From Raillietiella orientalis (Eukaryota), in NCBI GenBank assembly GCA_036172245.1, contig JAYWIR010000009.1:5022001-5086000 (forward strand): a stretch of DNA of 64,000 bases, in the 5' to 3' direction. Shown here in pieces: positions 6,708-62,700 of this stretch; positions within the stretch are counted from its first letter, which is position 1, and the number at the start of each line of letters is the position of its first letter. Below the pieces are notes generated by a model. The model did no database searches. It saw nothing but the letters and a program-made list of their open reading frames with translations, and had not been told where the DNA came from. The position numbers were made by a program, and so were the translations under genes.

Positions 6708-8715
6708 ATGCCGTACGCAAAGTGCACGCGGCGGTGCTTCACCCCAATCAACTGGACAACCGCAGAAGAAACACAGGAAAGGTCACTTCGAAAAGGAAAG
6801 CACGCAATGCTCGGAAAAGAAGCAAGCTCAACAGCAACCCCGCATCTCCAGGGATGCTTTCAACAGCAATACCCTCGACGATACCTCAGCTAAAACGGAT
6901 CCGAGGTTTCGCAAGAGTTCGCTCGTCGGAACCGCCGAAGGAAATCCTCAACACAGAAAGACCAACAACCATGCGAAAGAGGCACACCGACAAACGACAA
7001 ACCTCCTACTACACAAGATCAAATAGATCGATTGCAAGCACGAGTGAACACGGTTCATTTCAGATCATCGCATGCGGAGAAGAGGGAAAAAACAGAAAAA
7101 TCGTTCTGCGGAAACGAAGCACAACCATTCGAAAAACAGAAAGCCTTCCACATCGACGGCATAAGACTCCGAAATACGTACTCTCCAAACAATCCAACCA
7201 TCCTGAAAACATTACAACCATGGCAAACTTCTCCCCCTTGAAACCTCTCTACCGGCTCCTGGCAGCCCACGCATGGATCTCCTGCCGCCCAACGAACTTT
7301 GAGTCCTGGCGGCAGGAACCGTTGCATGCCTGCGCAAATCAACAAATGTTTCGCTCTTGGAACTCCGTTGCGCCAACCTCTCCCCGTACCGCAAGGTGGA
7401 TGAGGTCTGGAACAGCCAGGAGAAGTGGACTCGCCTGGCCGTCACGCCCCTCGCCGACGCGCTGTGAGCCCTCAGGGCAAGAGATGACAGCTGCCGACCG
7501 GCGAGGTTCGAGGTCACCTGCACCATCGCAGGAGCAACCCGACCCATAGGCGGCTGGAGGACCTGCGAGCAGGCAGACGCTGCCACGCCTCGCAACATCC
7601 CGAAGGGACTCCTACGGTGGAGCGAACATTTGAGTGTGCCCCCCGAAGAACTTGTGGTCCACTTCTGTGTTCCCCCTTTCTTGGAAGCAGGACGACATCA
7701 TGCTGGTGCGTTGGGGTTTTCACTCCAACCAGCGGACGAACCGTGTTTCCGGGGGAGTGGTCTCCCCGAACTGTAAACGGTGTGGGGACGTGGAAACGCT
7801 CCCGCACCTGCTCTTGGACTGCGGTGCCCTCGAAGGACTGTGGCGGAGGCTGGCCTCAGCTCTTCTGCACCGGAGGGACACCGCAAGGGACTTGATGAGC
7901 CGCTTCTTCACGCCAGGCGGCCTGTCCTTAGGTGCTGTCATCGCAACGGTCTGTTGCACCCGCGCCATCGACAAGGCCCACCGAGAGCTGGAGAAGCTGG
8001 CGATTCGTCGTCAGGACACCGGAATAGCCAGAGTGAACATGGCGGCCGAGTGGGCCCATCTTCCAGAGGACGTTAGGAGCGAGATCACCGGCAACCATAG
8101 CAGGTTCTGAAAGAAAGGAACGGCCAAACCAAAGACCCCTGTCCCCTACACTCCCCATATCTTTATTTCTATTTTTTATACGTGTATTTGTGGTCCCCTC
8201 GTTCCGGACTGTCGGTTTGCCGACCTGCGTGTCGGGGTTCCCCCCCCCTTCGTGTCTTCTGTGTCCTTTGTCCGGGAACTCTGTTCCTGGATAGTTCAGA
8301 AATAAACGCCCCGGAGCACCCGGGTGAGAAACAACCATGGCAAAAAACCCTACATAGATCCCATGCAAAGAGAACCCAGCGAACGAGATATACAGTGGTA
8401 CAACGATTACCAAGGTAACTGGGCAAAAACCACAGTAGCCGAAACTATCAAAAGCCACGCACCGTACTTAACCAATCGCAAAAAGAGAGGCGCCGGCTAC
8501 ACGCGGAAGGGAGAGACACTCATCATGCTGGACCTCCTCACACGCACACCACATCAACTACGGAATTATAGAAAGCCGAAAAAACGGAATGCCGCGATCC
8601 ACTAAACTATCAAGGTCACGTTGAATTGGACCATCCGCCTCGCTTCATCATCTTCCTCAACGTGGACCCCAACCACGAGAAAATGTCAAGAGACCGCTGC
8701 ATCATCCCTCAATCC
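6708..8715 (+). pseudogene. rep: Full-length but degenerate CRESS Rep, split by a LINE insertion (Rep parts 6708-7227 and 8345-8715)
   Basis: Motif I CFTPINW, motif II GKEASSTATPHLQG, then LQPWQ | insertion | RDIQWYNDYQGNWAKTT (Walker A), LIMLD (Walker B), KNG and PPRFIIFLN..MSRDR. Confidence 0.8.
7228..8330 (+). mobile_element. 5'-truncated L1/Tx1-clade LINE with 14-bp target-site duplication
   Basis: C-terminal CCHC finger CKRCGDVETLPHLLLDC, stop at 8110, 3' UTR with AATAAA plus hairpin. ACAACCATGGCAAA is repeated at 7214-7227 and 8331-8344. Confidence 0.9.
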
Positions 8716-9219
8716 ACTCAAGGTCTGTTGGAACCAATGCCACCTAAGGATGGCATTTCACGTACCACTGCGCTAAGCATTTACGCGTTGAAGCAAAACC
8801 ACGCTGCCGAATTCTTGGCTACCTTGAGCATGAAAATCTCGAACCAATTTTTTCCATTCCGTCTTTCTAAACAAGACGCCGGTGAGGATTCTGTTGCACC
8901 TTCTGACTTTAAAACAGCACAATTGTTTCAACATGTTCCTGTCATCCACATCACCCAATTCATCCTTAGCTTTTGCAACATGGAAAAAAGGACAGATTCC
9001 AGTCATGCCCAGGACACATCGCAAACACACGCCTGAACTGCTTTCTGCTTTTGCAAGACACATGGATGCTAAAGGCACCACGAAAAAAAGCAGTTTGTCA
9101 TCAATTTGGGACTGTGGTAAGGGAGTTTCTCAACACAAAAACGCTACTCCTGCAAAACCATGTAGTCAACTATTATGGAGACTTTAGGACGAGTAGGTTG
9201 TGAGCAGCAAGCATACTGA

Positions 9220-9745
9220 TGTTTCCCATCCCATTCACCTTTCACCGCACTCTGCATAAAGGGCAGCCACGCTCCCTACTATCCAGTGCGAGAGTGGTGC
9301 TCTGCATAGAATTCTCCCATGCAGGAATAGAAACGCCGCCTCTTGCCACTCCATTGGAAGAGTGCTACTGTGCCAATATGCTGGGGGCCACTCAGCTTCT
9401 CCAGTTGCATTCCGTGCAGCTCGCCTCAGCGCATGAGTTCTTTCCGCAGCGTCCACTGCCTGCCGAGTTGTCCACACTTTCTTTAGTTTTTTCCTGCCTC
9501 CAATGAGGCAGGACATTTCCCACGATGCTCGTTCGTTTCTGTCTCTGGTGTGTCTGAGGTACATCAGCAAGGGAGCAAGGAGGATGGAGGAAGGCACAGC
9601 AATTTGCGTGGGTTTTTTCCCATACGCTGCAAGGGCTGTCGAGTGCAAGGGCCTCGTCGGAGGCGAAACGAAGCATTTGGGAGAGGCGACAGGCGTCATC
9701 ACGTCCTGCAACCCACCGACGTTCCCGATCGGGCTGCTTCGGAGA
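9220..9745 (-). mobile_element. Degenerate L1/Tx1 ORF2 C-terminal fragment
   Basis: ASWEMSCLIGGRKKLKKVWTTR...WPPAYWHSSTLPMEWQEAAFLFLH matches ORF 53256-54719. Confidence 0.8.
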
Positions 9746-13518: not shown

Positions 13519-13581
13519 TCAGTGCTGTCTGATGATACTTCTAAGGCGTCAGTGCTGTCTGATGATACTTCTAAGGCGTCA
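13519..13581. repeat. Perfect 30-bp tandem duplication
   Basis: TCAGTGCTGTCTGATGATACTTCTAAGGCG x2. Confidence 0.95.
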
Positions 13582-15749
13582 TCGCGCAAGAACTTTTCTG
13601 CAACTCAGCACTGATATGTCGTAGGCATCCGCAAGAAGCCCCTCTTCTGTATATGCTGTATGGAACCGTTTGCCCCTCGACTAATTCCTTGCTCTCCATT
13701 GTGCCTATGGCTTAATTCCGATTCTACGTCTTGATTGGACTGTGTCGTGGGCCAAGCATTTTTCCGCGCACTCGTGGATATGATCTACTACTACGTCCTT
13801 GGCACTCCCTGCAGTGCTCGTTACGTAGTGTTTCCCTCTTTATTTGAGAAGATTAGCGCGGTTCTCATCTTCGTACGAGGAAGGAAGCTCCTGAGCCTGG
13901 AAGAGCTCCCACCTGCCCAGAGAAGCGTGGGCCAGTACGCCTGCTCAGAGGATCTGCCCCGTGCTCCAGGGACACAGCTGCTGCAGCTGTGTTCCTGTCC
14001 TCAGCGGTAGCACCTGGGTGCTCGTCCTCCTCGGCAACCGGCGGCTGGTCGGAATTCCTGCCTTTTTCACGTTACGTGCAGTCGCCTGGAAAGCGGCGCT
14101 GGCGTCGACGATGGAGATGGGCGATGGTGGTGCTCCTCGCCAACGTCGCATGTCGGCGATCCCGTTCATGTTGCTCCCGTTCCGGATGATGCCTCCCACT
14201 CTGGAAAGTACGTGGACTCAGGTGTCTCAGCAGGACTGACACCCTTCCACTGAGCGAAGATATCCGTCTGGTCTGAACGGAGGCACATGTGGTCCCGGGC
14301 ACGTTCCGGAAATCGTTTGCCCCTTTCCCCTGCCGTGCCTGAGCCAGTAATGGGGGGCGCATTCTTGGACACCCTCTCGGAGGAACGGGGCGAGAGGTGA
14401 AGAAAGGAGGGTACGGAGCCAATCTCGAACGCTTCTAAACCATTTGGAGCTACTCTTCTGGCGACGAATAGGACCGCAGAGAAGCGCCACGTGCCAGTGG
14501 CGTCACGCATCCGAGGTTTCTTTTGTATTTTTTTTCTATGGAAATGCCAGCAAGCTGAATTCGGATTTCATGCTTGCAACCTTGCAACCTCGCTTGCAAC
14601 CTTGGCTGCAATTTATGCATGTCCACGTTCCAGAGTCCCTGTATGCTCTCGTAACGCTTCTGTCTCCGTTCGCGACTTTACCCGGAAACCCTTCTTTGTC
14701 CATCTTAGCATTACGTTGGGAATGAGGCCGAGGCCACTTCTCAAGTGGCGTTTGGAACGTGTTCGGTTGCCCCGGGCATTCATTCTCGTGCTCCTCTCTT
14801 CACTGTTGGAACATTGCAGGTTGCTATTGGCACCTGCCCACACACTTCTTCAGTCCGGCTACCGGACTTGGTAGCCCACTGCAAGTCGTCGGTCCATTCA
14901 CGGCCCTCTTCTCCTGACTGCACGAACATCACAGCTCGCGCCTTCGCACCCATCGACAGATGGGAAGAGGCTGGTCGCAACGCAGATGCTTAAGAGCGAA
15001 GCAGTCCGAGAATCCACTCGAGCACCGTAGCGGTCCCTGGACCCTTTGATGATGGCGACGATGTCGCTACCTTTATTCCTCTTCGGGAGAGATTGCAATC
15101 TGTTAATTTTTCTTTCTTATCCCGCCTGGCCGTGAGCAGTGTTTCCTCTCCGTGCGTCTTTGAGTCCACACCCAGGACTTGCTGGTTCTCTGAGACCTCA
15201 GCCTTCAGCCAGGTTTCCTTATTCTACCCCCAACTCCATTGTGCCGTTGTTGGTACATGAGAGAATGCCTCATGCAGTGGTTTACTATGTGAGGCAACAT
15301 ACGCCACGTTCTCTGCTTCCTTCTACCGCACGCGTGGAAGGCACCACTGGCGACTAGTGGAGTTGCCATGCAGCGGAGATCCCTTGATTATGTAGCCGAG
15401 GTTGACGATACTTTGGCGGCTTTTCGAGGTCTTTTTTTTTTTTCAAGGAGTTTACGAGCAGAGGAATTTCGAGGCGAGGGGCGGATTTTCCACAAAAGGG
15501 AAAACGTTTGAAGGGGTTCGTCCGAAATTGGGGGAACTCTTAGACGAACTCCCTTGCCGAACGCTTGCGAGGTTTCCCCAGAACTTTGCAAAGACCGGAA
15601 GCTTTTTTCTTTCCATTTGGGAAGAGGGCCACAAGCCCGGTTGGATTGGATGCTTGGATAAACGCAGTGCTGAAAGGATGGGAAAAGGGCTTGGAGCATT
15701 TCAGGAGCAAGCAGTTGCATTGCAATCGGAGGAAGCAATTGGATATACC

Positions 15750-16360
15750 TTGTGGAAACATAGAGCGAGAATCCTCATTTATAGGTATCCTCCCAATAAA
15801 AATAATAAAAACATTTGAATTTGCAACAATCACATTTATTATCTCTGAAATTTTCTTATTCATTTCCTTCTTCTGATCATTCTTCCATTCCAGACCAAGT
15901 GTCAATCCACAATTTCGATTTTCGTGACCTCCACCCAATCTTGCCCTACCCTACGCCATAGAAGTGCCTCTGCTTGACACCATTCTCCTGTATAGATCAG
16001 TTATCTCAGTTACACGAACACATCACTCTCTCTTAAAAAAAAACGATTCCCTCTCATTTTTATCCCTACTTCTTACTATCACAAGTGGATTCACATTCCT
16101 TACAACTCAAGCCATAGAATACTTCATACTCAGGTTTTCTATTACAGATTCAACTTTTGGTTCAACACTTTTTATCGCAACAGGATTCCACGGTTTTCAC
16201 GGATTTGCCGGAGTTATGTGCCTTACTTTATCCAAAACCCAAATTTTCACACTCTCCATCACTCACCTTCACCATCTATCATTCGAACTCCCCCTCTGAT
16301 ATTGACATTTTGTAGACGTTGCATGATTGTGCTTATTTCTATTCATATATTTATGAACAT
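15750..16360 (+). pseudogene. cox3: NUMT: cox3 (copy 2, 3' two thirds); start of a ~6.1 kb mitochondrial insertion
   Basis: SEIFLFISFFWSFFH...FSITDSTFGSTLFIATGFHG...WYWHFVDVAWLCLF. Confidence 0.92.
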
Positions 16361-16415
16361 ACTCTTTTATTAGACACAGTACAAATAACTTCCAATTATT
16401 AAGAAATAAAGAGTA
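16361..16415 (+). tRNA. trnG: NUMT mt tRNA-Gly(TCC), lacking T arm
   Basis: Acceptor stem ACTCTTT/AAAGAGT and anticodon arm AATAA-CT-TCC-AA-TTATT, immediately after cox3. Confidence 0.75.
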
Positions 16416-16467
16416 GTCTTTTAGTTTAATACAACACATTATGCCTTCAAGATTAAAATTTTAAGAA

Positions 16468-16522
16468 TTTGAGTTAAGCTTAAGCATATCACTGTTAATG
16501 ATAAAAATTTCCCCAACTCAAA
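16468..16522 (+). tRNA. trnN: NUMT mt tRNA-Asn(GTT), lacking T arm
   Basis: TTGAGTT/AACTCAA acceptor; TATCA-CT-GTT-AA-TGATA anticodon arm. Confidence 0.75.
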
Positions 16523-16604
16523 CTCTATCTGCTCCATCCATCAACTGTCCATTATTTCCTAAGTATTTTCAACGCTTTGCCCTACGTAAGCTAAAAAGAC
16601 AATC

Positions 16605-16658
16605 TAAAATTATAGTTAGAATAATATTTGTTTTACAAACAAAAATTTCTAATTTTAT
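16605..16658 (+). tRNA. trnV: NUMT mt tRNA-Val(TAC), lacking T arm
   Basis: TAAAATT/AATTTTA acceptor; TTTGT-TT-TAC-AA-ACAAA anticodon arm. Confidence 0.7.
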
Positions 16659-16707
16659 TAAAGTAACAAATAATTCTATACAATAGACTATAACTCGTGC
16701 ACTCAAT

Positions 16708-16761
16708 GAGACAACCTCAGAGGCTCCTAATCCCTAAATAGTGGCATACCATTTTGTCTCT
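16708..16761 (+). tRNA. trnS1: NUMT mt tRNA-Ser(AGN), D-armless
   Basis: GAGACAA/TTGTCTC acceptor, no D arm, T-arm-like AATAGTGGCATACCATTT. Confidence 0.55.
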
Positions 16762-16769
16762 TCTACTAA

Positions 16770-17113
16770 AAAAATATTACTTTTACCCTCCCTTTTTATT
16801 ATCACTTTCATTATTTCTTTCGCAATAATCATTAAACCTAAACTCCAATTTAATTACAATACCTCGTCTCCCTTCGGATGAGGATTTGAGGCAAAAAAGG
16901 ATGCACATTTCCCATTCTCTATCCAATTTTTCCTAATTACAATTATGTTCTTGATTTTCGAATTGAATGGAATTAGCCATTATCTTCCCCGCACCCCTTT
17001 TCCCACTATCCCTCACACTTTCTACAACCATTTCATTAACATCATTAATTCTTTTTTTAATCTCAAGATTCAAATATGAATTTTACACTGGCTTCATCTC
17101 ATGAATATTCTAA
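16770..17113 (+). pseudogene. nad3: NUMT: NADH dehydrogenase subunit 3
   Basis: SSPFGWGFE..AHFPFSIQFFLITIMFLIFE, corresponding to SPFECGFD..FSxQFFL. Confidence 0.85.
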
Positions 17114-17149
17114 GATAAAAGTGAAAACAGGTAGTTACAATGTAACCTT

Positions 17150-18600
17150 AAATTCGTATTTCCATCCCGTTAACACTCGTAACACTTTCCCAGAGATATT
17201 ACTCAACATAAAATTAAAAATTTAATTCCACTAGGATTCTGAGATATCCACATCCAACCTCAATCATAAAATCGTCCGTAAAAAACTCATTCATCTCAAA
17301 TAACACACAACAAAATACACCATAAAATATTTACTTTCTATAACATTATAAACAATACTCTTCTGAACAACATTAACCACTCCCACATACCACACACACC
17401 CTCACTCCATCCACCCCTTATCAATTATCTCCCTAATTATGCTGACACGCATTAACCAATTTCTTAATATAAGCCCTCTCATCAACTTCAAACCCATAAT
17501 TACCATCATGACATTTCCTCAACTCTTCACCATAAACTTTACTATACTATAGTGACTCCCCAAAAAGGAGACAACATAATTCTGACATAAATTACTCTTA
17601 AAACTAAATTAACCATTCCTACATTTCCCATAATCCGCAAATCCCGCCCCCATCATACCCATGAATAACCAATCCTGCACACAAAAACATCAACGACTTA
17701 AACACGGCATGAATCAATAAATGATAATACACTAACATCCCCATACCTAACCCGAACCCTATAAACATTATACCCAACTGCCTCAGCGTTGAGTATGCAA
17801 TAGTCTTTTTCACATCAACCTCCATCCTCCCCATTACTCATGAACACACCATCGTCAAAAGACCACCATATAACTTACCATCCCAATTTCATTAAATCGA
17901 ATCATTAAATACACCCCGCAGTCACCAATCTTGACAAATGAACCAAAGCTGAAACTCGCGTAGGTGCTCCCATAGCCTCTGGTAGCCACACAATAAATGG
18001 TAGCTGTGCACTCTTAGTCATTCTCATTAACATTATTACCCAGAAATATCAACTATTAACACATAATCTCTCATAAACCCAAGTACCTCCCATCAACAAC
18101 CATCCATCAGCAAAATCCTATCCCTGAAACGATTACTCATAAACGTAATTATACCCCCATAATCAGAACCACGGATCATATAAAAAATCACCAAACAATA
18201 AGAAATAATGCCCAATCCATCTCAACTCAAAATAATCGCGACTAAACTAACACTCATAATTAACAATAACATTCTCACCACAAACCAAAATACTATAACA
18301 AAATACAATAACATCAAAAAACAGTTTTCTTGCTATGTACTCCCAACTATACATCATAACCAAAAAGAAACAACCATTACATACCCTATAAATAATAAAC
18401 ACTTATCATCGAAAACAAACGATACACTCCACTTCATTCCTCCCAACCTCATCAATGATCATTCCATCAACACTACCCCACTCCAACAAACAATTCACAA
18501 GCCCACACTCACAACTATCATCCTAACCAACCCCACTAATGACATATGTAATGACATGACAATGACCCCACTATTGACATGACATATGTAAAAAACACAA
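17150..18600 (-). pseudogene. nad5: NUMT: NADH dehydrogenase subunit 5 (with deletions and frameshifts)
   Basis: EVDVKKTIAYSTLSQLG...[37 protein letters not shown]. Confidence 0.9.
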
Positions 18601-18639
18601 AATCATAATCAACCCCCCTAATCCACCATACCCCAATTT

Positions 18640-19550
18640 CATCCCACCTCTCAGATACATTGATCGTCTCCCTAACAACTCAAACATTTAGCCCCTAAAA
18701 AAAAATAAGCCGGAAGATACATAACCATGTGCCACCATTGTCAAAACACATCCCATCACCCCCATCTCACTCCCCATCAATCTCCCCCCTACAATAACCC
18801 TTATATGACAAATCGATGAATGAGCTATAATTACCTGTCGAAAACACATCATTAACCACCTACCATAATTAAGCCAATTAAACATAACCTTATAACCCCA
18901 TAACTATATTTTATAAATAACCGCACCATCCCATACCTCCCTAACTTCAACATAACCCCAACAAGAATTATAGAACCAGAAGAAACAGATTCCACATGAG
19001 CCTTTGGAAGCCACAAATGAACACCTTAAACTGGTAACTTTACAAAAAACACCCCTACCAATATTAAACCTTCCATTCCCAACCCCTCATCTCTTCCAAT
19101 TGCTCATCTCCTATTCTAATGATCAAACTATCTCCCACAAAATCAATAAGACCAATTAAAAACCACAAAGACCTAAAAACCGTATAAATAAATATGTAAA
19201 CCCAAGCTCTAAATCACTCCCTCTGGTACCCTCACCATACTACAATCAACACCATAGGAACCATCCTACTCTCAAAAAACACATTAAATATAAAAAAATC
19301 GACTCTTATAAATCCATACATTACCATTACACCCAAAACCACTCTTACTACTCCTAACATAACCACCCCACTAACTCCCATTCTGTCCATTACCACTTAC
19401 ACTCATCTCCACCAAAAAAAAATAATCCAAACTACCCAACATCATCATCTCCAACCTCAATAATCCTCTTAAAATATGCCCCTTATTCATACAAAATATT
19501 CATAAACCTAATCAAAACACAAATCATCCCCATCTCTATTACTATTCCAG
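18640..19550 (-). pseudogene. nad4: NUMT: NADH dehydrogenase subunit 4 (partial)
   Basis: [28 protein letters not shown]...MVAHGYVSSGLFF. Confidence 0.9.
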
Positions 19551-19604
19551 GATATGCCTACATACAAATCTCCAGATCTCACTACCATCCACATAAACCC
19601 CTTG

Positions 19605-20025
19605 CATAATCATAATTACAACCATATCTCTCCTCTATTGCTCATACACCAATCCGATAATTATAGCTTTCTTCCTAGCTACAATTTCACTGACCACTGC
19701 CATTATCATTAACCTCCTTTCCATAACATCATGATATGCTATCATTCTATTTCTCATCTACATCAGAGGAATTCCAATCATCAATCTAACATACAATGAA
19801 TTATCTACATTCAGTACAAAACCCTTAATTATTACCCCATTCCTACTTCTTATTCCCGCCCCAAACTAACCTACTTCCCCATCCTCATCTTACTCATCAA
19901 GAATTCTACTGTCATTACCATACATCTCAATAACCTGATTCCTAATGTCCTACTGAATATTAACACTAATCATTATCCCACAAATAATCATACAAAAAAA
20001 GACACCCCTCCGCTCTCTCCTTTAA
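19605..20025 (+). pseudogene. nad6: NUMT: NADH dehydrogenase subunit 6
   Basis: TSWYAIILFLIYISGI motif; lies upstream of cob. Confidence 0.7.
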
Positions 20026-21115: not shown

Positions 21116-21129
21116 AAAATGCATGAACA

Positions 21130-41965: not shown

Positions 41966-41969
41966 ACCG

Positions 41970-42438
41970 CGTGTATCACGCCATTGTGCGCATAATGCGT
42001 CCCCACTGTGTTTGCTTCGCGCGAGTTGCACATGAAAGTCCCTCGCGACCAGGTGGGCTGTATCTGCATTTGGTCGTTCCCACCTGTTCTCCTTCAGGTC
42101 TCGGAGAAATGCAGTCGTTCCGGTGACTGGCATGTTTGTGGTAGGGGCGTAGATATTGGTAACCCTGAGGTCGATGTTGTCTGACCATTTTAATTTTGAT
42201 TGCTTAATTCTGCCCTTATCATCAAATCTCGTCAAATCTCAAGCCCAGGGTACGCAACATCTTGGGCTTCAGCAGCAATTCCACTCTTGTGTGGAGAGCC
42301 CCATTCCTCCAAAACATTTCCGACCCAGTAATCCTTTCGATTTCGCGCGCCATCTCTTGGGATACCAGGTGTAACTCCTGGAGGAGCACTACGTCAAAGG
42401 ATTGCAGGGCGGTCGCGATAGCAGGTCTTGCGGCTCTC
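41970..42438 (-). mobile_element. L1/Tx1 APE endonuclease fragment
   Basis: FDVVLLQE..LKWSDNIDLRVTNIYAP..HLVARDF. Confidence 0.8.
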
Positions 42439-50160: not shown

Positions 50161-50164
50161 GGGT

Positions 50165-52612
50165 GACGCGCGCCTCTCCTGCGGACTTGCGACGGCGCGC
50201 GTCACCATGGACGACCGGAGGCTCATGCCTTCGCAGATCCTCCTCGGTGACGTCGTCGTCTATCTCCGGTTTGCCGGGCAAACCCCCGCTTGCGGTAACT
50301 GCGGGAAGGAGGGCCACCGTCCGCGGAAGTGCCCAACACGCAGTTGCCGATACTGTAAGCTGCTCGGCCACTCGATTAACGAGTGCGCCGAGCTAAAACG
50401 AAAGAGGAGGGCGAGAAACCTCCCCGCAACATCGCCGTCCGCGCCGACTCCATCCGCCCCGTCGTCGGGGAAGAAATCAGGCGCGAACGAGGATTCTCAG
50501 CGGAGAAGTGAAAAGTCCGCTTGCGCGGGCGATTCTCGGAGCAATGCTCCCAAAAAACCCGCGCGAAAGGACAAGAAGCTTCTCCAGGCTGCTTCAGTGA
50601 AGCCCCGAGCGACCCAGCCCGCCGATAACATCGGGCAGGCTGCAAAACCACCGCCGCTTCCGTCCACTCTCGCTCCGGAGCGAAATAGCGGTGGCACGCC
50701 CGGGAAGACCACCGGAGCGTCGAAAAAGGGGTCGCGCGCACCTTTGCCAGGGACAGGCAAGCCGGCCACGGCGGGCCGAACGCCAGCAAAGGCTGAAAAG
50801 CCTCGCGCGACACCCGAGAATCCCGCCACTGTGCCCGCACCTCCCGGTAAGGAGGTGCAGAAGGCAGACGTGGCGAAGGAGACACTGGCCTCCATCGCCG
50901 TATCCGAGGCCTTGGAAAGGATGCGAAGGACCCTGGAAGCCCTCGCGCCCAACCGGGGCAAACAGGAAGGCGGCGAGAATGGCTGGACCTTCGTCGGGGG
51001 AAAGAAGGAGCGCAAACCGCGCGATCCTTCCCACTTCCCGATCAAAAAGGTAGGCGGGGTGAAGAGGCAACCCCGCGCGCCCAGAAAGGCGCCAGGAAAA
51101 GCCTCTGCTGCCGCCGCGCGCGCCGCCGCAAACACCCGCGGCGAGAGGGGAGCTGCCGAAGCCGTGACCCCGAAAGGGGGATCGGCGACGAAGGCACCCT
51201 CTAAGAATGCTGGACCAGCTCCGGGCTGCCAGCAAACAAAGAGGCAGGCGAAACACCCGCCGCCGCGTGCGCGCAATTCGGACTGCGAGGTGGAGTCCGA
51301 GGGCAGCGCTAAGGCTCGCCAAGCCCCGGTCAAGGCCAGGGCTGCGCGCAAGCCAAAACTTGCCAGGCAAGAGCCTGATGCCGGGAACGGTTCCCGATGC
51401 TCCTCGGAGCCCGAGGCAATGGTCCTCGACTCCACCGAGCCGGCCGCGAGCGGCGCGGCGGGGACAGGAAGCGCTTGCGCTACCTCATCCGCCGTGCTCC
51501 CGGCTGATGCCTCGCCGGACGGGGCGAGGAACGCACCTCCATGTCCGTAGCAGCAATGCGCGGTCTCGCTTCTTCCTGTCGCGTCCGAGTGGCCTGTTGG
51601 AACGTCAACGGGCTGCAGGACAGCGAGAAGAGGCGATTGGTTGCCAACGTCTTGCGCGACTTCGATCTGGCCCTGCTGCAGGAGATTCACGCACTCTCCG
51701 AGCAGCAATCGGCCGATCTGCAAGTTCGCGCAGGCGGGACGCTCCATTGGAGGTCAGGCTCCCAGAATACCTGCGGAGTCGCATTCCTTGTCCGGGGCAG
51801 GGTGGCGGGAGCGGTGCGGAGCGTTTGTTTCGACGAGGAAGGTCGTGTGGGCCAACTTGTTCTCAAGTGGTCCGAATAGATCAACCTTGTCGTCACGAAC
51901 GTGTACGCGCCGAGCGACTCCGCACGTCACACCGAGAAACTGGAGTTTTTCGAGAGACTGCGCGACCGCTGGCTCAGCAACTCCGGCCCCGACGTGGCTC
52001 ACCTCGTAGCCGGGGACTTCAACGTCCACGCGCTATCGGAGGAGTCTCACCGTCGCCAGGAGAAACGGCTGGTGAACGAGGTGTGCGCGTCGCTGCACAC
52101 CTCGAATTTGCTGGCCGACGATCCCGGAATGCGTGCTTTGCCGGACCATGTGTTCCTCGACGATCACCTTCATTGTCGGGTGGGTCGAGAGGTCCCGTGC
52201 CGTCCGAGCTTTCCGACCACTACAGGCTGGAGTTTGAGCTACTCCTGTCTGGCAAGGGCCCTCCGACGCACGTCTGGAGGTTGCCGGCCGACTGGTTGAG
52301 AAATCCGGTGGCTGCGGAGCACTTCCGCCAGCATCTCCGGACCTTTGCCGTTCGAGAGCTCGTGGACTGGGACGATCTGAAAAGATCGGTCCGCGAGTTC
52401 TGCAGCCGGTTCCCCTTGCGCCTGCTTCCCCGTGACTTCGGGGAAGGCGTGGCCAACAGCAGAGAGTTTCTGCAGGCCCGCCAATTCTTTCGATGCCCGG
52501 ACGTCCGGTACCTTGCGGAGTACAAGGCCAAGGCCGAGCGCCAGGTCTGGCAGTCAGGAGCAGCTTGTCTGCTCGACGACCAGGGCCTGGAGTGCTCGGG
52601 CGCGGCCGAAGC
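50165..52612 (+). mobile_element. L1/Tx1 LINE B: ORF1 (two zinc knuckles) and start of ORF2, interrupted at 52612
   Basis: CGNCGKEGHRPRKC..CRYCKLLGHSINEC in ORF 50159-51550; APE domain from ~51557. Confidence 0.92.
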
Positions 52613-55600
52613 TTGCCACCCGGATATGCTGGGGCATTTATTATTCTAATTTTTTACAAAAATTAGATAATAAAGTCTTTCAAAAGTTAATTGTGGGAAA
52701 CACTTGGTTTTCCCACCTTGGTTGACGTGTCTGTTGCCGGTGCATAGACCGGTTAGGTCCATTCCCGAGGCGCATGGGAAGGGAAAACTAGAACAAAAAC
52801 AAACAAAAAGAGAGATAACGGGGAGGGAAACAGTTGTATGGGGAGAGGGGGGGGGCAGGGAAGGGATCACTGAGCGCCTGGGTCGGTCCTCCGCATCCTG
52901 TTCAGGATGCAGTCAACTTCTGTTTTAACCCTGAAAGGTAGACGCCACCTTGTCGCCGTCTCTAAAGAGATCGTCGTCCAGTGGATGGCGTCCCTGCATC
53001 TTGGGCCTCTTCTTCTGGCGTGCCACCTTTGCACAATGCCGCGCACGCAGCAGAGGACTGCTAGAGACGCGGCGGGGCGCAGGCCGTCACGCAGAAAGAG
53101 GCGACGGTAAATTTCCTTAGGGTCGCCTACTGGAAGATGGAGGATTGGGGCGATTCTACTCCAGAGTCCATCCAGGGCGACACACTCGAGGGTGAGATGC
53201 GGGAAGGTTTCTCTTTCTCCGCACTCGACACAGCGGGCATCCACATTCCCCAGTGTCAGTGAGACAGGCGTGCTCTGCTTAACAGTCCCCAGTGCAGAAA
53301 TAGCAACGCCGTCTCCTGCCACTTCAACGGAAGTGTGCCGCAATCCCAACACGCTGGGGGCCACTTCACCTCCTCCGGAGGTATTGCGAGCAGCTGTCCC
53401 CAGCGCGCAAGTCCGTGAGGCGGGACGCTCGGGGTGGCAGCGTCCGTGAGCTCCCGAGTCGTCCACGCCTTTAAAGGTTTTTTTCTGCCTCGGATGAAGC
53501 AGGACATTTCCCACGATGCCAGCTCGTTGCTGCTCCTAGTGTTTTTCAGGGAGGACAGAACGGGGGCAAGGGGACTGAAAGAAGCCCACAGAAACTTCCG
53601 GGGCGTGTTGATAATCTCCTGCAGCGGCTGTCGAGCGTACGGTCCTCGTCGTAGGCAGTTGTATTCCGCCTCGCTCGTGTCGTTGATCTTAGCCCACGCG
53701 GAAGCTGACTCCTGAAGCCAGGCAGTGCAGTTCGCGGGAAGGCAGGAGATCCAGGTATTCTCCCTCATCAGGGCGAACTCCTGGCGCAAATCGGGACCAC
53801 AGTTGGAGAGGCTGCGCTGGTAGGCCACGAGGATCGAGGACAATCCTTCGCAGCCGGTTGCTCTTCTGGCGAGGAGCCGTGCCGGATCGCACAATGGCAT
53901 CATCCATAAGCTAGCCGCAAGGGCTAACTTTCGAATTCTTGTTTGAAGTTGGATGCGCTCCAACGTAAGGAGGCCCGAGCCACCATCCCTGCGTGGAGCG
54001 CACAAGTCTTTCAATCGGACTCGCGACTTCGCTGTGCCCCAAAGGGCCGTCCTCAAGAGGGCTTTGCTCCGTCTCTGTATGATGGGAGGGGCGGGGCAAA
54101 CAAAAAGTAAGGGGCGAAGGAGGGGGGCCGCGAACGCGTTCCACACCGCGGCCCGCTCCTGCAAGTAAAACATGCCGTTCCGGAACGGGCCGATCGCCAA
54201 CTCCACCTTTTGGAGACGGTCGGACCAGGCTTCTGCAACGCAGAAGTCCCCCAACGGAACGCCAAGGTACTTGAAGCACCTGCCCGTGGGGATCCCCAAG
54301 CGGATCCAGTCCTGCCGTCCGGCCCACGCCGTATTGTTTGAAAGTAGTGGTGATGTAGGAACGATTGTGGATTTCTCTCTGTTCACCTCGAGGCCCGTCC
54401 CGCGGCGCAGCAACTCAAAGAAATCTTCGAGCGCCGACGCCGGGGTGGACCCGGGGAGCAGGAGCAGAAGGTCGTCGGCGTAGGCCGACACGGCAGGCCT
54501 GCCGGGACACAAGCTTGGCAGGGTTGCCAGAGTCTCCCTGTATGCCCTCAGCACCAGCTCGAAGTAGATGCTGAAGAGCATGGGGCTCAGACTGTCACCC
54601 TGCCTTATGCCACGCCGAACCGGCACGCCGTACACGTGCCGGCCGCTAAAAGATATGTTTATTAGAGCGAAGCGCCAGCAGGAGCGCAGGTAAGCCCGGA
54701 AGACGGCCGGGAATCCCAAGCGTTCCAGGAGCTCCAGAAGCAGTTCCTGGTCGACGCAATCGAACGCTTTACGCAGATCGACTGCGACCGCAAGGGCACC
54801 GGCGCGGCTCTTCCATGAAGGGCGTCCCCTCCCTGGTCAGAGGAGAATCCAGGATTCTCTTGACCTCCCTGGTCTTCGCTTTGTTGCAACTGCCACCATG
54901 TACTGGCGAGGAACAGGTTGGCCTCCATGCTTCGTCCGGGAACAGCGTATGTCTGCTCCGGACTCACCACGGATTCCGCCACCCGTCCCAGTCGCTCAGC
55001 CCAAAGCTTGGCAAGCAACTTCGCATCCGCATTCACTACTGTGATGGGACGCCAGTTGCCTACATTGCGATTGTCTCCTCCTTTCGGCAGGAGACGTACT
55101 CTAGCTGACCGGAACGATTTGGGGACGTCCCCTTGTTCTCGGATCAGCATGCATAGCCGATGCACCAGGGGGGCCAGCTCCGCCACGAAGCCTTGGTAGA
55201 ACTCCGCGGGCAGACCGTCTTCCCCTGGTGCTTTCTTCTTTCGGAGCTTTCCGATGGCGGAGACGATCTCCGCCATCGAGAAGGCTCCTCGAGTTGATGT
55301 GCCTGCTCCTCCTGCAGGGCGGGGCGCCTTGCGGCAGCAAGCGCTGCGCCACGGCGCGCTCTGTTGTTCTACGCGCGTACAAGGAGTAATAGTCCCGCAG
55401 GATGCGGTTTATTCTCGCTGGTGCTGAGCATTCTTGGCCTTGGGCGTCCAGCAAGCTGGCCGACCCGGATTGCCAGGTCTGTCGCTCAGCCCCAGCTTTA
55501 TACTCCGCCAGGCGTCGAACGTCGGGAGTCCTAGAGTAAAGACGGGCGTGGTGGTATGCCCGGTCGTTCCTCAGCCCAGCGTCCGCCGTACACCGCGTAG

Positions 55601-58600
55601 TCAGGAGCTACTTCTCCTCGTTGTACGCGGAGGAGCCCACGGAACGCAGACTCCCCGAGCTGCTTCTTCCGACGGGCAACCCTGCTATCGACGAGGAGGA
55701 ACGCGCCAGATTGGATTGGCCCTTCACGACGAAAGAAGTATCTTCCGCCATATGCGGCCCTGAAGAGGCGTAAGGCGCCAGGTGAGGATAGTCTGCCTGC
55801 TGAGTTCTTCCAGTGCTTCGCGGCGGAACTCATCACCCTTGTGCTGAGGCTTTGTGCGCTGATGCGAGAAACGGGCAATATCCCGACCTCGTTTCGCTCA
55901 GCAAGGGTGCGTCTGTTGCCGAAAGGCGGAGACATGCGCCATTTAAGCAACTGGCGTCCCATCACCTTGGTGAATGCGGACGTCAAGTTGTTCTCCAGGC
56001 TGTAGGTCGCGCGCCTGGGCAGGATCGCTGGATCCGTGGTAAGTCCGGAGCAGTCTTACGCTGTTCCCGGGCGGTGCATGGAGACGAACCTGTTTTTCGC
56101 GCGCACGTGGCTCGAGCTGCAACGCTGCGTGGCGCACGACAGCCAGGCAACCGCGTCTGCGGCTGCCGAGGCTAGGCGTCGCTGCATTCGGCCTGGGGAA
56201 GCGCCGGGTGCCTTGACGGTCGCGGTCGATCTCCGCAAGGCGTTCGATTGCGTAAATCAGGATCTCCTGCTGGAGCTCCTGGAACGCCTCGGTCTCCCGG
56301 TGCACCTCGTGGCGTATTTGCGCGCTTGCTGGCGCCACGCGCTCATTTCCATCTCTTTTAGCGGCTGCCACGTGTACGGCGTGCCGGTGCGGCGGGGCAT
56401 AAGGCAGGGAGATAGCCTCAACCCCCTGCTCTTGAGCACCTACTTTGAGTTGGTGCTGAGAGCGTACAGGGTGACTTTGACCCCATTGCCGAGCTCGTGC
56501 CCCGGCACGCCCGCCGTAGCAGCGTACGCCGACGATCTTCTGCTCTTGTTGCCAATGTCCACCCCGGCAAAGGCGGTCAGAGACTTCTTCAATCTGCTCA
56601 GCCTCGTGACCGGACTGCAGGCTAACAGAGCGAAGTCGTCGGTTGTGCCAATAGGTGCGGAGAGGGCAGGGCAGCAGGACTGGGTCCGTCTGGGGATCCC
56701 CACGGCGAGGTGCTTCAAGTAACTTGGTGTGCCGTTGGGGGACTACTCCCCTGCGGAAGCGTGGTCGAGCTGCCTCCAAAAAGTCGAGACGGCGATCGGC
56801 CCGTTCCTGGAAGGCAAGTTTCACTTGCCGGAACGGGCCGCGGTTTGACACGCCATCCTCCGCCCCTTGCTTTTTGTTTGCCCCCCCACCGTGGAATCCA
56901 AGAAGGGGACAAAGGACCTCCTCCGTATCGCCCTTTGGGGCAAGGGGAGGCTCCGAGTCCCTCTGAAGGACTTGTGCGCTCTGCGTCGGGACGGCGGTCT
57001 TGGCCTCCTGACGCTGGAGCGCGTGGAGAAGCAGCTGCGGTGGCGAATCCTCGCCATCGCAGCGAAGATGTGGAGCACCCCTTGGTGCACTCCGGCCCGC
57101 CTCCTGGCCAGCCGTGTGTCCCGGTGCGATGGACTCACGTCTTTACTTCTGAGCCGTAGCCTGAAGATGCGAAGATGCGGCCTCCTGCTCAGGCGCATGG
57201 CAACATTGGCCAAGGAGAACAGCTGGATGGTTTGCTGCCTCGCCAACTCCCCCGCCTGGCTGGAGGAGAATATTGGAACGTGGGCAGCGGTGAACCAGAG
57301 GAGCCACGAAACGTGGAATCGTCTCCGATGCAGCCCCTACGCCCGCTGCACGCTACGGAATCTCCTGGAGAGTCCAGCAAGATGCACGTGGGCAGAGACG
57401 ACCTGCCTAGCTACGGCGCTGCCCTTCCTAAGGAGGGCACTTCACAGCACCCGGACGCCAAGGTGGCAAGTCTCCTGCTGCATCGAGGGACGCGAGAAGT
57501 AGATCAGCGGCTGGACAACAGGAGAACTGGCCGACACCACGACACCGAGCGTCCAGCCGCGAGGATTATTAAGATGCGGCGAGCTGCTCGCCATCCCCAG
57601 GGATGAGCTGAAGTGGCCCTCGGTGATTAAAGAATCCAGGATCCTGCCCCTCAAGTGGCAAGAGTCGGCGTTGCTTTTGTTGCACTGGGGTTTACCCTGC
57701 AACGCGCGCCGCTTCCACTGGACGAGGGGAGCTGTGGATCCTGCGTGTGCCAGGTGCGGGGAGCGGGAATCTCTCCCCCACCTTATTGTGCATTGTGCTG
57801 CCCTCCGACCCCTTTGGGAACCGTTCGGGACGACCCTCGGGCTTCCTACGGGCAGAATCCCCAGAGACGTTCTTCGGCCCCTCTTCGTGAAGGACGCACT
57901 GCAGCCAGCCGCAGCCATCGCAGCCTTGTGCTGCGTCCGTGGCATCGTGGCGGCATGGAGCGACGCCAACAACGAAGGAGTGGGTCCACAGGCGAGGGAT
58001 GTCATCCCGTATGCCCAACGCTTCTTGCGAAGAGCTGCCGGATGTCCCCAACTGGGGAATATGCAGACAGACCTCGAGGGCTTCGTTCGACGGATGGGCC
58101 CTCCCCACAGCGACCAGTGATCCCTTCCCTGCCCTCCAACCTCATTTGTTTGTTTCCGTTTTAGTTTTTATTTTTGTTTTTCCCCATCCCCTTTCGTTGC
58201 CGGGGAGTGCCACGCCGGGCTGCGTCCCGGTGTCCCGGTAGGTCCCGTGCATAAGGCCGTGAACGGGGCCTGGTACCGCGATTGTAGAGTTTTTTATAAA
58301 TAAATGCCCCGGGCGTACCCGGGTGGCAACAACGAAACCTGGAGGGAGACGGTTCAGGGGAAACTGGTTGCAGAACTCGCAAACTGAGCTCTTCAAGTCG
58401 TCCCAGTCCGCGAGCGACTGCAGATGGAAGCTTTGCAAGAACGAGCGAAGATGTTGCGCTGCTCCTGCGATGCGCAACCAGTCCCCTGGCAAACGGCACG
58501 CTGTGGATGGTGGATCTCTACCGCGCGGGTGTATTTCTACCACGAGCCGGGGATGGTCGGAAAGTTCGGATGGCACTGCCCCTCGATTTCCCACCCGCGA

Positions 58601-59712
58601 ACACAGGTGGTTGTCGAGGAACATGTGGTCGATCCTCGTCTCCGTCCCGGCGTCACCGGCCAACAAGTTGCGCGCGTGCATGGCAGCGCACATCTCGTTG
58701 ACCAGCTGTGCGCGAATGTCGGGCGCACCTGCCAGCAGGCGGACGTTAAAGTCCCCGGCAATGAGGTGCGCCTTTCGCATGTCTGCTTCGGCCAGCCAAT
58801 CTCGCCGCAGGCCTTCGAAGAACGCAGTGCGTTCCCCGCGCCTGTGGCTCGTGCCGGGCGCGTACACGTTGGTCACGACGAGGTCGATCGCGTCGGACCA
58901 CTTGGAAACAAGCTGCCCGATTTGACCTTCCCCGTCGGAGTGCACGTCGCGCAGCGCATTAACGACGGCTGGCTTCAGCATGAAAGCCACACCGCGGGTG
59001 CGGTCGCTCCTGTTTTGGTATGCGAGCCGCCCGCCTGCGATCCGTTCGATTTCCTGGTCCTCCCCTGCGTGGAGCACGTGCGTCTCCTGCAGAAGCGCCA
59101 GGTCGAAGTCCCGCAGGCTGGCGGCCACTTCTCTCCTCTTGCCGTCGTCGCGCAACCCGTTGACGTTCCAACAGATTACGCGCAGTCGCCGGCAGGAGGA
59201 GAGTTTACGCGTTGGTGTGTTTATGGTGTTTGCTTACCGTCCTCCGCCTGCTGTTCAGCAGGCGGGAGTTGTGTATCCATTGCGACGGGCTGTTCCTCGC
59301 AAGGGGGCGGTCCGTCGGTGGTTGTGGTGGTCGTTGGAGGATCCTGCTTGGCCAGGGCCGCCTCCGGCGAGGAATCGCGAGACCTCGCGGACATCGCCTC
59401 CCCGTCGTCGTGGTCCGACCGCATTTCCTCCTCCGCCGGTGGAAGTGCGGAGCGCCGCAGGTTGCCAACCTTGCGGCCCGCTTTGCGCTTCAGGAGAGCG
59501 AAAGCCGGAGCGTTGCCGGCTTCCGCTTCGGACTCGGAAGTCTCCGGTCCTTTCGTCACAGCCGGACGCCTCAAGGCCTTCTTCTGGGCCTTGGGAGGTT
59601 GCTGGAGCATGGCTGCAAACTCTTCCGCCGCCTTATTGAAGTCCCGGTCGTCGCTGCTCACGCTGGGCTCGCGACTTTGTCGCGGCGTCGGCGTTCGAGC
59701 GGCGGCGGGTTG
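52613..59712 (-). mobile_element. L1/Tx1 LINE C: ORF1 end, ORF2 and 3' UTR, split by LINE E
   Basis: APE 58330-59210 ends RLPPGF and resumes GLRNDRAY at 55577. RT at 53256-54719; terminal hairpin at 52617-52642. Confidence 0.92.
55578..58329 (+). mobile_element. 5'-truncated L1/Tx1 LINE E nested in LINE C
   Basis: RT (AYADD) at 56036-56722, CCHC at 57623-58120, terminal hairpin at 58299-58325. Confidence 0.92.
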
Positions 59713-62700
59713 TTCACACCCGGATGTGCCGGGGCATTTATTTCATAGAAATAAAATTACAGAAAAATGTCGCGTGGCGAACCCAAAGGTTCACCACTCC
59801 AAAACAGCTTGCTGGTTGCCGGCTCTAGGCCGGAGAGGTCCTTCCGATGCGCGGGGATGGGAAATAAACAAAAAGAAACAAAGTTCAAATGTGGGGGGGG
59901 AACAAATGTTTTAGGGGTGGGAGGGCAGGGAAGGGATCACGTTGCACGTGGACAGGTCCTCTAGATCCTATTCAGGATCCGCACAAGCTGAGTCCTTTCA
60001 GCGCCTAAGTGGCGCCACTTGCAGACACTGCGCGCGAAAAGACGAGTCCAGTGTAAGGCGTTGCCGGTTGGCTGACGCCTTCTGGTGGCGTTCCAAGCCG
60101 CCACTATTCCTCTGATGCAGCAGAGGACTGCTACACTAGCGGGCGGGGACAAGACGTCACTACAAAAGAGGCGCTTTAAAACGTCCTTTGGGTCGCATCC
60201 GCGCAAGTCCAGGATCGCCGCGAGACGATCCCACAAAGGGCGGAGGGCGCTGCACTCAAGGAGAAGGTGGGGGAATGTTTCTTTTTCCCCACACCGGTCA
60301 CAATTAGGATCCACAGCTCCCCGGGTGGTGTGATGCAGGCGCGCTTTGAATGGTAATCCCCAGAGTACCACAAGCAACGCCACATCCTGCCATTTCAGAT
60401 GAAGGGATGCACTGTTCTAGGACGCTGGGGGCCACTTCATCTCCTCCGGAGATAGTCCGAGTAGCTCGCCCCAGCGTCGAATTCCGTCGGGCGGGACACT
60501 CGGCGTCGCAGCGTCAGCTAGCTGCCGAGATGTCCATGCCTATATCAATTGTGCCCTGCCGCCTATGATGCAGGACACGGTCCATTTCCCCTGCTCGCTA
60601 CTGTCCCTGGCATTCACAAGGAAGGGCAGCACTGGGGCGAGGGGGGTTATCAAGGCCCACAGAAGCTTGTCGTGGGACTGCACGATCTCCTGCAGCGTCC
60701 AGCGGGCGTGCCTTTTCATACAAGTGTTCCTTGTGCCCGCCGGAACGTGGATCTTTACCCAGGTGGAGACTGACTCGTGCAACCAGGCGGAGTAGTTCCC
60801 TGGGAGGCAGGAGATCCAGGCGTTCTCCCGAACCGCAACAAAGATGCGTCGCAGCATAGAGCCACAGTATGGTCTTCTGCAGACGCGCGCAGACAGAAAC
60901 GAAAAAAGTCCGCCGATTCCGCAGGCTCGTTGGGCCAGGAGGCGTGCTGGAACGCACCAAGGCGTGTCCCACAATTCTGCCGCAAGGGCGAGAGTCCTGA
61001 ATCGAAGTTGTAGTTCCATGCGCTCCAGCGTAAGTACGCCAAGTCCACCGTCCTTGCGTGGAGCGCACAAGTCTTTGAGCCTCACACGGGACCTCCCTTT
61101 GCCCCAAAGGACTGTCCTCAGGAGGCCCGCTGCTCGTTTCCGAATAAAATAAGGGACGGGGCAAACAAAAAGTAGGGGGCGAAGGAGGGGAGCCGCAAAC
61201 GCGTTCCACACCGCGGCCCGTTCCTGCAAGTAGAACTTGCCTTCTTGGAACGGACCGATCGCCAACGCTGCCTTTTGGAGACGGTCGGACCAGGCTTCTG
61301 CTGCGCAGAAGTCCCCCAATGGTACGCCGAGGTACTTGAAGCACCTGCCCGTGGGGATCCCCAAGCGGATCCAGTTCGACCGTCCAGCCCACGCCGAACC
61401 GACGAAGACCATGGACGACTTCGCCCTGTTCACCTCCAGGCCCGTCCCGCGGCGCAGCAACTCGAAGAAGTCCTCGAGTGCACTCGCCGGGGTGGACCCG
61501 GGATGCAGCAGCAGAAGATCGTCTGCATAGGCCGACACGGCAGGCGTGCCGGCACACGAGCTCGGCAGGGTTGCCAGAGTTACCCTGTATGCCCTCAGCA
61601 CCAACTCGAAGTAGATGCTGAAGAGCAAGGGGCTCAGGCTGTCACCCTGCCGGATGCCGCGGCGTACGGGCACGCCGTACACGTGCCGGCCGCTGAAACC
61701 GATATTGATTGACGCGTTGCGCCAGCTGGAGCGCAGGTAAGATTGAAGCACGGCAGGGAAACCCATGCGTTCCAGGAGCTCCAGAAGGAGATCCTGGTCG
61801 ACGCAGTCGAATGCTTTGTGCAAATCGACCGCGACGGCAAAGGCTCCCGCCGAGTCCATCCCACACTCTGCCCGATCTTCTTGGTCAGAGGGGGGCGCGA
61901 GGCTCCCTTGACCGTCCTGTGCAACGCGTTGTCGCAACTGCCACCATGAGCTGGCGAGGAGCAGGTTGGCCTCCATGGTTCGTCCGGGAACAGCATAGGT
62001 CTGCTCGGGACTCACCACGGAAGCGGCCACCCGCCCAAAACGCTCAGCCCACAACTTGGCATACAACTTTGCGTCCGCATTCACTACTGTGATGGGACGC
62101 CAGTTGCCAATGTTGCGTAAGTCTCCTGACTTCGGCAGGAGACGTACTTTTGCTGACCGGAACGAGGCGGGAACTTCGCCGTGTTCGCGGATCAGCGCAC
62201 TTACCCTGAGCACCAGGGGGGCCAGCTCTGGCGCGAAGCGATGGTAAAACTCCGCGGGCAGGCCGTCCTCCCCTGGTGCCTTCCTTCTCTTTAGCCTGTT
62301 GATGGCGGAGATGATCTCCGCCATCGTGAACGGTTCCGCCAATCTGGAACGGTCCTCCTCCTTGAGCGCGGGAGCGCCATCCGGCAGCAGGCGCTGCGCG
62401 AAATGGCGCTCAGGTGGTAGTGGCGCGTACAAGGAGGAATAAAACTCCCGCACGATGCGGCTTACCTGGGCTGGGCTGGAGCGTTCTTGGCCCTGATGAT
62501 CCAGCAGGCAGGCCGAGCCTGACTGCCAGGCCTGCCTCTCCGCCTCAGCCTTGAATTCAGCCAGGCGACGGACGTCGGGACGCCGGGAATAACGGCGCGC
62601 CTGGAGGTACGCCCGCTCGTTCCTGACACCCTCACCGAAGCCCGGCGGAAGACGTTCCAGCGGAAACTGGTCGCAAAACTCACGGACTGAGCACTTCATT

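Follow-up and report, generated by a model that had tools for sequence, protein, structure and literature searches.

In a 64,000-nt stretch of Raillietiella orientalis DNA (GenBank assembly GCA_036172245.1, contig JAYWIR010000009.1, positions 5,022,001 to 5,086,000 of the forward strand; hereafter the window), six diverged copies of a long interspersed nuclear element (LINE) end in the same short module and carry no poly(A) tail. The elements encode an apurinic/apyrimidinic endonuclease (APE) and a reverse transcriptase (RT), and the module at their 3' ends reads AATAAA-YGY-CCCRG-loop-CCGGG-TK-NN-AA. These are probably the true 3' termini of diverged L1-like LINEs of the stringent type, in which the element's own protein would recognise the 3' module and target-primed reverse transcription (TPRT) would begin at a fixed point. 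All evidence on the motif comes from these six related copies, designated A to F, in this one 64-kb window.

The copies were mapped with tblastn and self-BLAST, and domains were assigned with Pfam. Overall nucleotide identity between copies is 65–77% (self-BLAST), and at least four lineages can be told apart: A, B, C with E, and D with F. A motif scan and a covariance model placed the terminal modules at 8301-8330(+) in A, 23565-23594(-) in B, 45440-45470(-) in C, 52613-52642(-) in D, 58299-58329(+) in E and 59713-59742(-) in F, in each case with the coordinates and strand that a first-pass annotation of this DNA had given. The stem CCCGG/CCGGG is invariant in five of the copies; D has CCCAG and one A.C mismatch. 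It is generally 5 bp long, extending to 6 bp in C (loop ATTA) and E (loop CGTA). Terminal loops of 4–5 nt differ in all six copies, so that the pairing of a conserved stem with unlike loops, also part of the earlier description, stands. Exactly 6 nt, T-K-N-N-A-A, follow the stem in every copy (TGAGAA in A). AATAAA is invariant (6/6) and lies 24–25 nt from the element end throughout, and half of the copies end in CAA.

The pattern AATAAAYGYCCCRG-N4-8-CCGGG occurred six times in the window, whereas 100 dinucleotide shuffles gave 0.00 on average. A stricter pattern, CCCGG-N3-7-CCGGGT, which the CCCAG of D does not fit, occurred five times against 0.11 expected. When the last ~320 nt of the six copies were aligned, mean pairwise identity was 0.79 over the last 30 columns versus 0.36, 0.29 and 0.34 in the three preceding 30-column windows. 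The module is better conserved than the open reading frame (ORF), and the sequence beside it is nearly unalignable. This difference, 79% versus 29–36% identity, argues that the module is under constraint across at least four diverged lineages. The claim that the rest of the untranslated region (UTR) differs between copies holds for most of the upstream UTR, which is divergent, but not for a block at the stop codon or for an upstream hairpin (HP-X, below), both of which are conserved. The module is a sharp marker for annotating exact 3' ends of the family.

The covariance model, trained on the six copies (model R1), scored them at 44–51 bits. It also returned a possible seventh, decayed module at 26248-26286(+), with 21.3 bits (E 0.016); the next site in the window reached 9.5 bits. 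At the possible seventh site CCAG/CTGG stands in place of CCCGG/CCGGG, a CpG-type transition pair that keeps the pairing. Neither a LINE body nor a duplication was found when sought there. Each of the six terminal modules adjoins a LINE body, and no short interspersed nuclear element (SINE) sharing the tail was seen within the window.

The 3' ends of the elements are exact. Copies A and B are both 5'-truncated and are bounded by target-site duplications (TSDs) of 14 and 13 bp, respectively, lengths within the variable range of L1 type (~7–20 bp). A occupies 7228-8330(+) (1103 nt), with ACAACCATGGCAAA on its left at 7214-7227(+) and again on its right at 8331-8344(+). B occupies 23565-24233(-) (669 nt), with TTGAGAGCGAGCA upstream at 24234-24246(-) and downstream at 23552-23564(-). 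In both, the downstream duplication starts directly after the final AA. The base preceding the left duplication differs from the terminal A of the element in each case, and the 3' ends of A and B are therefore fixed to the nucleotide. No TSD turned up in a search around C, D, E or F, whose 5' ends are either nested or not defined. For D, E and F the 3' junctions were checked by homology. The end of D abuts ORF2 of a further copy, G, at about amino acid (aa) 377; the end of E abuts ORF2 of D, with its flank CAACGAAACC aligning to CACCGAAGCC of F; and the end of F abuts ORF1-coding sequence of the D lineage. Because of the duplications of A and B and the homology-checked junctions of D, E and F, the motif lies inside the element and not in the target. 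The 3' end is fixed within one or two nucleotides in five of the six copies, with no A-tail or A-rich remnant. The tail-length check proposed in the first-pass annotation, made within the six copies, gave no terminal A run longer than 3, and the annotation was also right that the two TSDs begin immediately after AA and that the 3' end is precisely defined. The first base past the final A is a, t, t, g, c and c in A to F, respectively, and the six downstream flanks are unrelated to each other.

Target sequences likewise lack the hallmarks of relaxed L1 priming. Three targets could be reconstructed (CATT|ACAACC, GTCC|TTGAGA and GCCC(T)|CAACGA). None is A/T-rich, and the primer they would yield is complementary to an RNA ending in A over no more than 1 nt. 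Hence, of the traits of relaxed L1 elements, an A-rich tail was seen in 0/6 copies and an A/T-rich, TT|AAAA-like target in 0/3. Flanks starting with (A)CAAC occur in three of the six insertions and may reflect a weak target preference, in a sample too small to say.

ORF2 is predicted to be about 1290 aa long in total and to comprise the APE endonuclease, the RT and a Cys-rich C-terminus. In F, an open frame of 1018 aa (P0001, 60540-63596(-)) matches the Pfam families Exo_endo_phos (2.2e-15, aa 42–247) and RVT_1 (2.9e-22, aa 488–759); RT or APE pieces were found by Pfam upstream of the other motifs too. This frame can be aligned to the C and E lineages past its stop at 60540, down to 59805. The stop at 60540-60542 is private to F: all five contigs that cover 60542 in sequencing run X1 read T where the window has A (depth 42/42), which removes the stop codon. 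More in-frame stops follow in F. In B, D, E and F translation would end at a TGA that lies in the conserved block GTGATCCCTTCC; C has TGT at this point, and A stops ~25 nt earlier. The 3' UTRs of A to F measure 220, 211, 212, 254, 209 and 224 nt. Matches of the C-terminal part to zf-RVT were weak, at 21.2 bits for E, 17.8 for C and 16.8 for A, all under the 27.5-bit cut-off. ORF1 of copy G (P0022) contains two C-x2-C-x4-H-x4-C motifs, with a Pfam zf-CCHC score of 18.2 bits (cut-off 20.8); a search of six neighbouring frames gave no RNA recognition motif.

Among runs X1–X3, only X1 contains the LINEs. Its 514 matching contigs comprise 46 at ≥99% identity, 97 at 95–99%, 162 at 90–95% and 209 below 90%. 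Contigs of X2 and X3 fell almost only on 45589-45638, a low-complexity A-rich stretch in the UTR of copy C. Many of them are unrelated, their depths run from hundreds to thousands, and they give no evidence of the element in those runs. Among the loose contig ends listed, none falls at the four LINE 3' ends, which has no bearing on tails elsewhere in the family. Two items were not counted as evidence: a contig of 293 nt over 59448-59740, with only 28 letters on the F side against the 31 required to bridge, and a joint 59742>59894, with a side of 26 against the 30 required.

The protein is L1-like, in keeping with the first-pass assignment. Its best match among solved structures is human L1 ORF2p (5.7e-45), with R2 proteins reaching only ~1e-14 to 1e-15. 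Searched alone, the APE domain best matched L1 endonucleases (1.3e-6 to 1.9e-5), and among the 48 chains listed for it at E ≤ 10 none was by name an R1-clade endonuclease; structures of R1-clade endonucleases exist in the PDB. A search with the RT region returned 138 proteins at E ≤ 1e-8. The closest, P0002 from a metagenome contig, is 68% identical, and the rest are at most 32% identical. The top named RT matches were fish, frog, Mucorales and plant L1-type proteins and a snake 'L1-encoded reverse transcriptase-like protein'. Only one close relative, 65–68% identical, turned up among 5.8 billion protein clusters searched, and in the protein cluster atlas only generic APE+RT clusters were matched. 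In a FastTree phylogeny of 115 RT regions, built without Repbase references, the query and P0002 are placed together on a long branch (query pair 1.48) within a 62-row half with support 94. All 28 zf-RVT rows fall here, including named plant and fungal (Mucorales) ones, and so do the rows named as snake, lizard and frog; 9 of the 12 Exo_endo_phos_2 rows and the named insect and scorpion rows fall in the other half. Inside the L1-like half, the position of the query is a polytomy. These results support placing the element in L1 sensu lato.

The module was also sought outside the window. A metagenome scan with the ORF2 alignment gave 168 confirmed loci, of which 80 were retained, all 21–31% identical and not including the contig of P0002; these had the motif in no case (0/80). 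Model R1 found nothing at E ≤ 1 in the same 80 loci (394,272 bases). A motif scan of viral contigs gave 0 matches, and one of prokaryote genomes gave 10, in unrelated bacterial records; by a rough estimate these ten are near chance.

The last ~130 nt of the 3' UTR are predicted to hold about four hairpins, which we call HP-X, HP-Y, HP1 and HP2. HP-X lies ~100–120 nt from the end. It maps to 8220-8235(+) in A (CCGAC-cugcgu-GUCGG), 23672-23689(-) in B (one broken pair), 45537-45558(-) in C and 58212-58233(+) in E (both with an 8-bp stem), 52737-52752(-) in D (CCGGU-cuaugc-ACCGG) and 59819-59833(-) in F (CCGGC-cuaga-GCCGG, with a 5-nt loop). The loop CUGCGU is common to A, C and E, and the stem occurs as CCGAC/GUCGG, CCGGU/ACCGG, CGUCGGG/CCCGGCG, CGCCGGG/CCCGGUG and CCGGC/GCCGG. 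Cells of the HP-X stem were paired in 78.6% of cases, versus 28.6–47.6% in slid controls, and both sides change in 3 of 7 pairs. The covariation score was 0.40 versus 0.195, a value reached in 2 of 500 shuffles, from six related sequences of which F is one column out of register. HP-Y spans 8–12 bp, differs in sequence from lineage to lineage and is clearest in A, D, E and F. HP1 is an A/U hairpin; AAUAAA would form its 3' arm in B, C, D and F, whereas A and E show this only in part or lack it. HP2 is the GC hairpin CCCGG/CCGGG, followed by UKNNAA. The last 145 nt fold better than shuffled sequences in all six copies, with z = -1.92, -1.69, -1.18, -3.94, -2.79 and -1.83. A scan of the window against Rfam gave no family at gathering score, and a tRNA scan of the window gave no genes.

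From these features we infer a mechanism of the stringent LINE type. The element protein would bind the structured 3' module, and TPRT would start at a set position 6 nt downstream of the last hairpin, with no need for a poly(A) tract or for base pairing to the nicked target. AAUAAA probably doubles as a poly(A) signal, with cleavage at the element end, because the element ends 24–25 nt after it, the usual distance from poly(A) signal to cleavage site in animals. The terminal AA may be templated or may represent the first tail residues. For the terminal hairpin itself, invariant complementary arms around free loops suggest a stem formed in RNA, which the RT may recognise.

Several observations weigh against this proposal. 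The covariation check suggested in the first-pass annotation, run on the six copies, found compensatory change in none of the five pairs of the terminal stem; because the stem never varies, covariation cannot confirm the hairpin, and two conserved sequence blocks would give the same picture. When the longer UTR is folded, minimum free energy structures often place the terminal CCGGGUG in other pairings. The small and related sample behind the HP-X test, with the register of F, counts on the same side. So does the RT tree, with its long branches and a support of 94 that is non-starred. Of the stringent, hairpin-recognising lineage that had been claimed, the tail-less defined end, the conserved module and the L1-like protein stand, and recognition of the hairpin by the RT is putative.

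The strongest competing explanation is that the 30 nt serve 3'-end formation only, as AAUAAA, a spacing hairpin and a cleavage site, with an RT that has no sequence recognition and starts at the first tail residues, for example of very short tails. A plain polyadenylation module would indeed look like what we see, with AATAAA in 6/6 copies and the end 24–25 nt on, and the CAA ending of 3/6 copies fits as well; this, too, tells against protein recognition. Yet tail-primed RT should leave A-tails of variable length, and 0/6 copies have one. The targets are not T/A-rich, and both the invariant stem arms and HP-X, ~100 nt upstream with compensatory changes, would be left unexplained. We consider this explanation unlikely. 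We give still less weight to the idea that, instead of forming an RNA hairpin that loads the RT, the palindrome CCCGG(G)/(C)CCGGG acts as DNA or cDNA, for instance by binding a protein or in second-strand synthesis. The invariant stem without covariation is what it would predict, as sequence rather than pairing may be conserved; but fixed arms around a variable loop of 4–5 nt, with a fixed 6-nt tail, fit a hairpin at least equally well, and the neighbouring UTR hairpins point to RNA structure.

Two further explanations run into the junctions. Ordinary relaxed L1 priming on poly(A), with tails since decayed, would suit an L1-like protein, and most L1-clade elements carry A-tails. It is contradicted by the TSDs of A and B, which follow AA directly with no A-rich remnant, and by the equally abrupt junctions of D, E and F, and we regard it as very improbable. 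Least credible of all is that the hairpin belongs to a multicopy target beside the insertion, a case the first-pass annotation had raised against itself. Only the recurrence of the motif speaks for it. In A and B, however, the motif lies within the TSD-bounded insert, which contradicts this explanation; the six downstream flanks are unrelated, and LINE UTR and ORF2 always lie upstream of the motif. Protein recognition of a stringent-type module thus stays our preferred account of the six termini.

We compared this element with known systems, as far as the accessible portions of the cited papers describe them. Precise 3' junctions without an A-tail are known from R2, whose protein binds a structured 3' UTR and needs no pairing between primer and template. 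R2 differs from the present element in its restriction-like endonuclease and rDNA specificity (PMC11194090), and its RT match here was far weaker. In UnaL2 and ZfL2, of the L2 clade, the ORF2 protein recognises a 3' stem-loop and RT starts just downstream (PMC4176376, PMC3747384), much as proposed here; these elements belong to another clade, however, and carry short tandem repeats such as TGTAA for slippage, whereas the 6-nt tail here is unique.

Closer parallels come from the L1 clade itself. Ohshima 2012 (PMC3472496), in its accessible part, describes L1-clade lineages with a conserved 3' end and a hairpin, namely monocot '1a' (LINE1-1_ZM) and Chlamydomonas L1-1_CR; it gives a divergence of 0.144 for the last 45 nt versus 0.570 overall and proposes stringent recognition as ancestral in green-plant L1s. 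The element studied here resembles '1a' and L1-1_CR (PMC3472496, PMC3747384) in its L1-clade protein, in a 3' hairpin with conserved flanking nucleotides, and in an end conserved above the rest (here 0.79 versus ~0.3 identity). It differs from them in several ways. L1-1_CR ends in poly(A) repeats (PMC3747384), whereas there is no tail here; both have tail-sharing SINE partners, unlike anything seen in the window; the '1a' stem shows compensatory changes, whereas the terminal stem here is invariant; and here AATAAA is built into the module, in what is apparently an animal host. Table 1 of PMC3472496 lists 5 of 15 green-algal L1 families without any 3' repeat, so an A-tail is typical of the L1 clade but not defining. 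Those families share with the present element the lack of poly(A) or any other terminal repeat; they appear as tabulated counts only, and the accessible part of the paper mentions no hairpin module at their ends.

The first-pass annotation had also named Tx1. Members of the Tx1 group likewise have an L1-clade ORF2 (PMC3747384, PMC5203782), and PMC5203782, in its accessible part, regards ORF1 variants carrying zf-CCHC as consistent with Tx1. The group is described as target-specific (PMC3747384), whereas the six insertions here lie in six unrelated sequences with no site specificity seen; the unrelated flanks argue against Tx1-type site specificity. Our literature search found no paper on an AATAAA-hairpin-NNAA end; Repbase and Dfam lay outside that search, and the family may be catalogued there. 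Tail-less, stringent-type ends of L1-clade elements are already known in kind. New here are an L1-like ORF2 running to a conserved TGA, a short UTR, the four predicted hairpins and the HP-X covariation.

A more specific proposal, which we offer tentatively and hold to be rather less probable than the stringent-type termini as such, is that these copies represent a deep-branching, stringent L1-like lineage of animals in which the recognition module is fused with the poly(A) signal. AAUAAA would then be an arm of a hairpin, and RT would start at the cleavage site, leaving the copies tail-less. If true, this would extend stringent recognition, proposed as ancestral in green-plant L1s, to the whole L1 clade and would provide a natural intermediate linking stringent to poly(A)-dependent priming. 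Template choice by L1-type RTs also decides the copying of host mRNAs and SINEs, and mammalian L1 owes its strong mutagenic effect to a relaxed, poly(A)-dependent choice; whether relaxed priming is derived is a question on which an animal L1-like lineage with tail-less hairpin ends bears. The compact 36-nt module with its upstream hairpin could be tested directly in a retrotransposition or TPRT assay.

The copies differ in completeness. A comprises the C-terminus of ORF2 and the 3' UTR; by tblastn, its segment 7489-8206 resembles the C-terminal ORF2 of copy C, and similarity to the same C-terminus marks B at 23785-24270. Copy C (45440-49250(-), the 5' limit of ~49250 being uncertain) retains a near full-length ORF2, from aa 13 to the end, and the 3' UTR, with its stop mutated to TGT. 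Copy G lies at ~50117-52612(+), its 5' limit approximate, and consists of ORF1 with the two CCHC knuckles and ORF2 aa 26–377, cut by the 3' end of D. Copy D is in two parts: a 3' part at 52613-55577(-), with ORF2 from aa 323 to the end and the UTR, and a 5' part at 58330-59712(-), with the end of ORF1 and ORF2 aa 16–320. Between them is copy E (55578-58329(+)), 5'-truncated from about ORF2 aa 375 and nested in D, with a 5' junction good to ~5 nt. In the coordinates of F, copy D is contiguous across the E block (62624/62633). Copy F extends from 59713 to the window edge (59713-64000+(-)); its ORF2, which includes P0001, can be followed in frame past the later stops to the TGA 224 nt before the end, and its ORF1 extends past the window edge.

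The 3' end of D (52600-52613) coincides exactly with the point, at about ORF2 aa 377, where copy G(+) is cut short, and E(+) starts at about aa 375 (55578-55600), so G and E could be two halves of one element; yet the two parts of D are contiguous across E as well (aa 320/323). For the order G5'-D3'-E-D5', simple nesting needs one coincidence of ~0.5%; otherwise a rearrangement is required. Further fragments of the same LINE group, with 3' ends out of view, lie at 1-881(-), where an RT piece and an APE piece meet at an abnormal joint at ~325, at 9238-9664(-) (a C-terminal piece) and at 41860-42419(-) (an APE piece).

Apart from LINEs, the window contains mitochondrial-like pseudogenes at 5293-6064 and 15544-21963, in a stretch with a GC content of 0.35 and a strong negative GC skew. 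Their order is ATP6(+), COX3(+), a 9.7-kb block, COX3(+), ND3(+), ND4/5-like(-), CYTB(+) and ND1(-), the last frameshifted and split over three frames. This order is the arthropod ground pattern of mitochondrial genes, which suggests an arthropod host, and the stretch resembles an arthropod-type mitochondrial genome that was copied into the nucleus and later split by insertions. A search with a COX3 fragment was uninformative about the host, its best hit being 48% identical. A direct repeat of 286 bp (83.6% identical), part of COX3, at 5779-6064 and 15758-16043 flanks the 9.7-kb block, which contains LINE copy A. It may stem from duplication of a mitochondrial-like segment, or be a duplication of unusual length. 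At 13519-13581 a 30-bp unit is repeated perfectly in tandem (2.1 copies). Finally, an open frame at 29877-30230(-) matches the Tenuivirus/Phlebovirus nucleocapsid (Tenui_N, 2.1e-17) and is probably an endogenous viral fragment.

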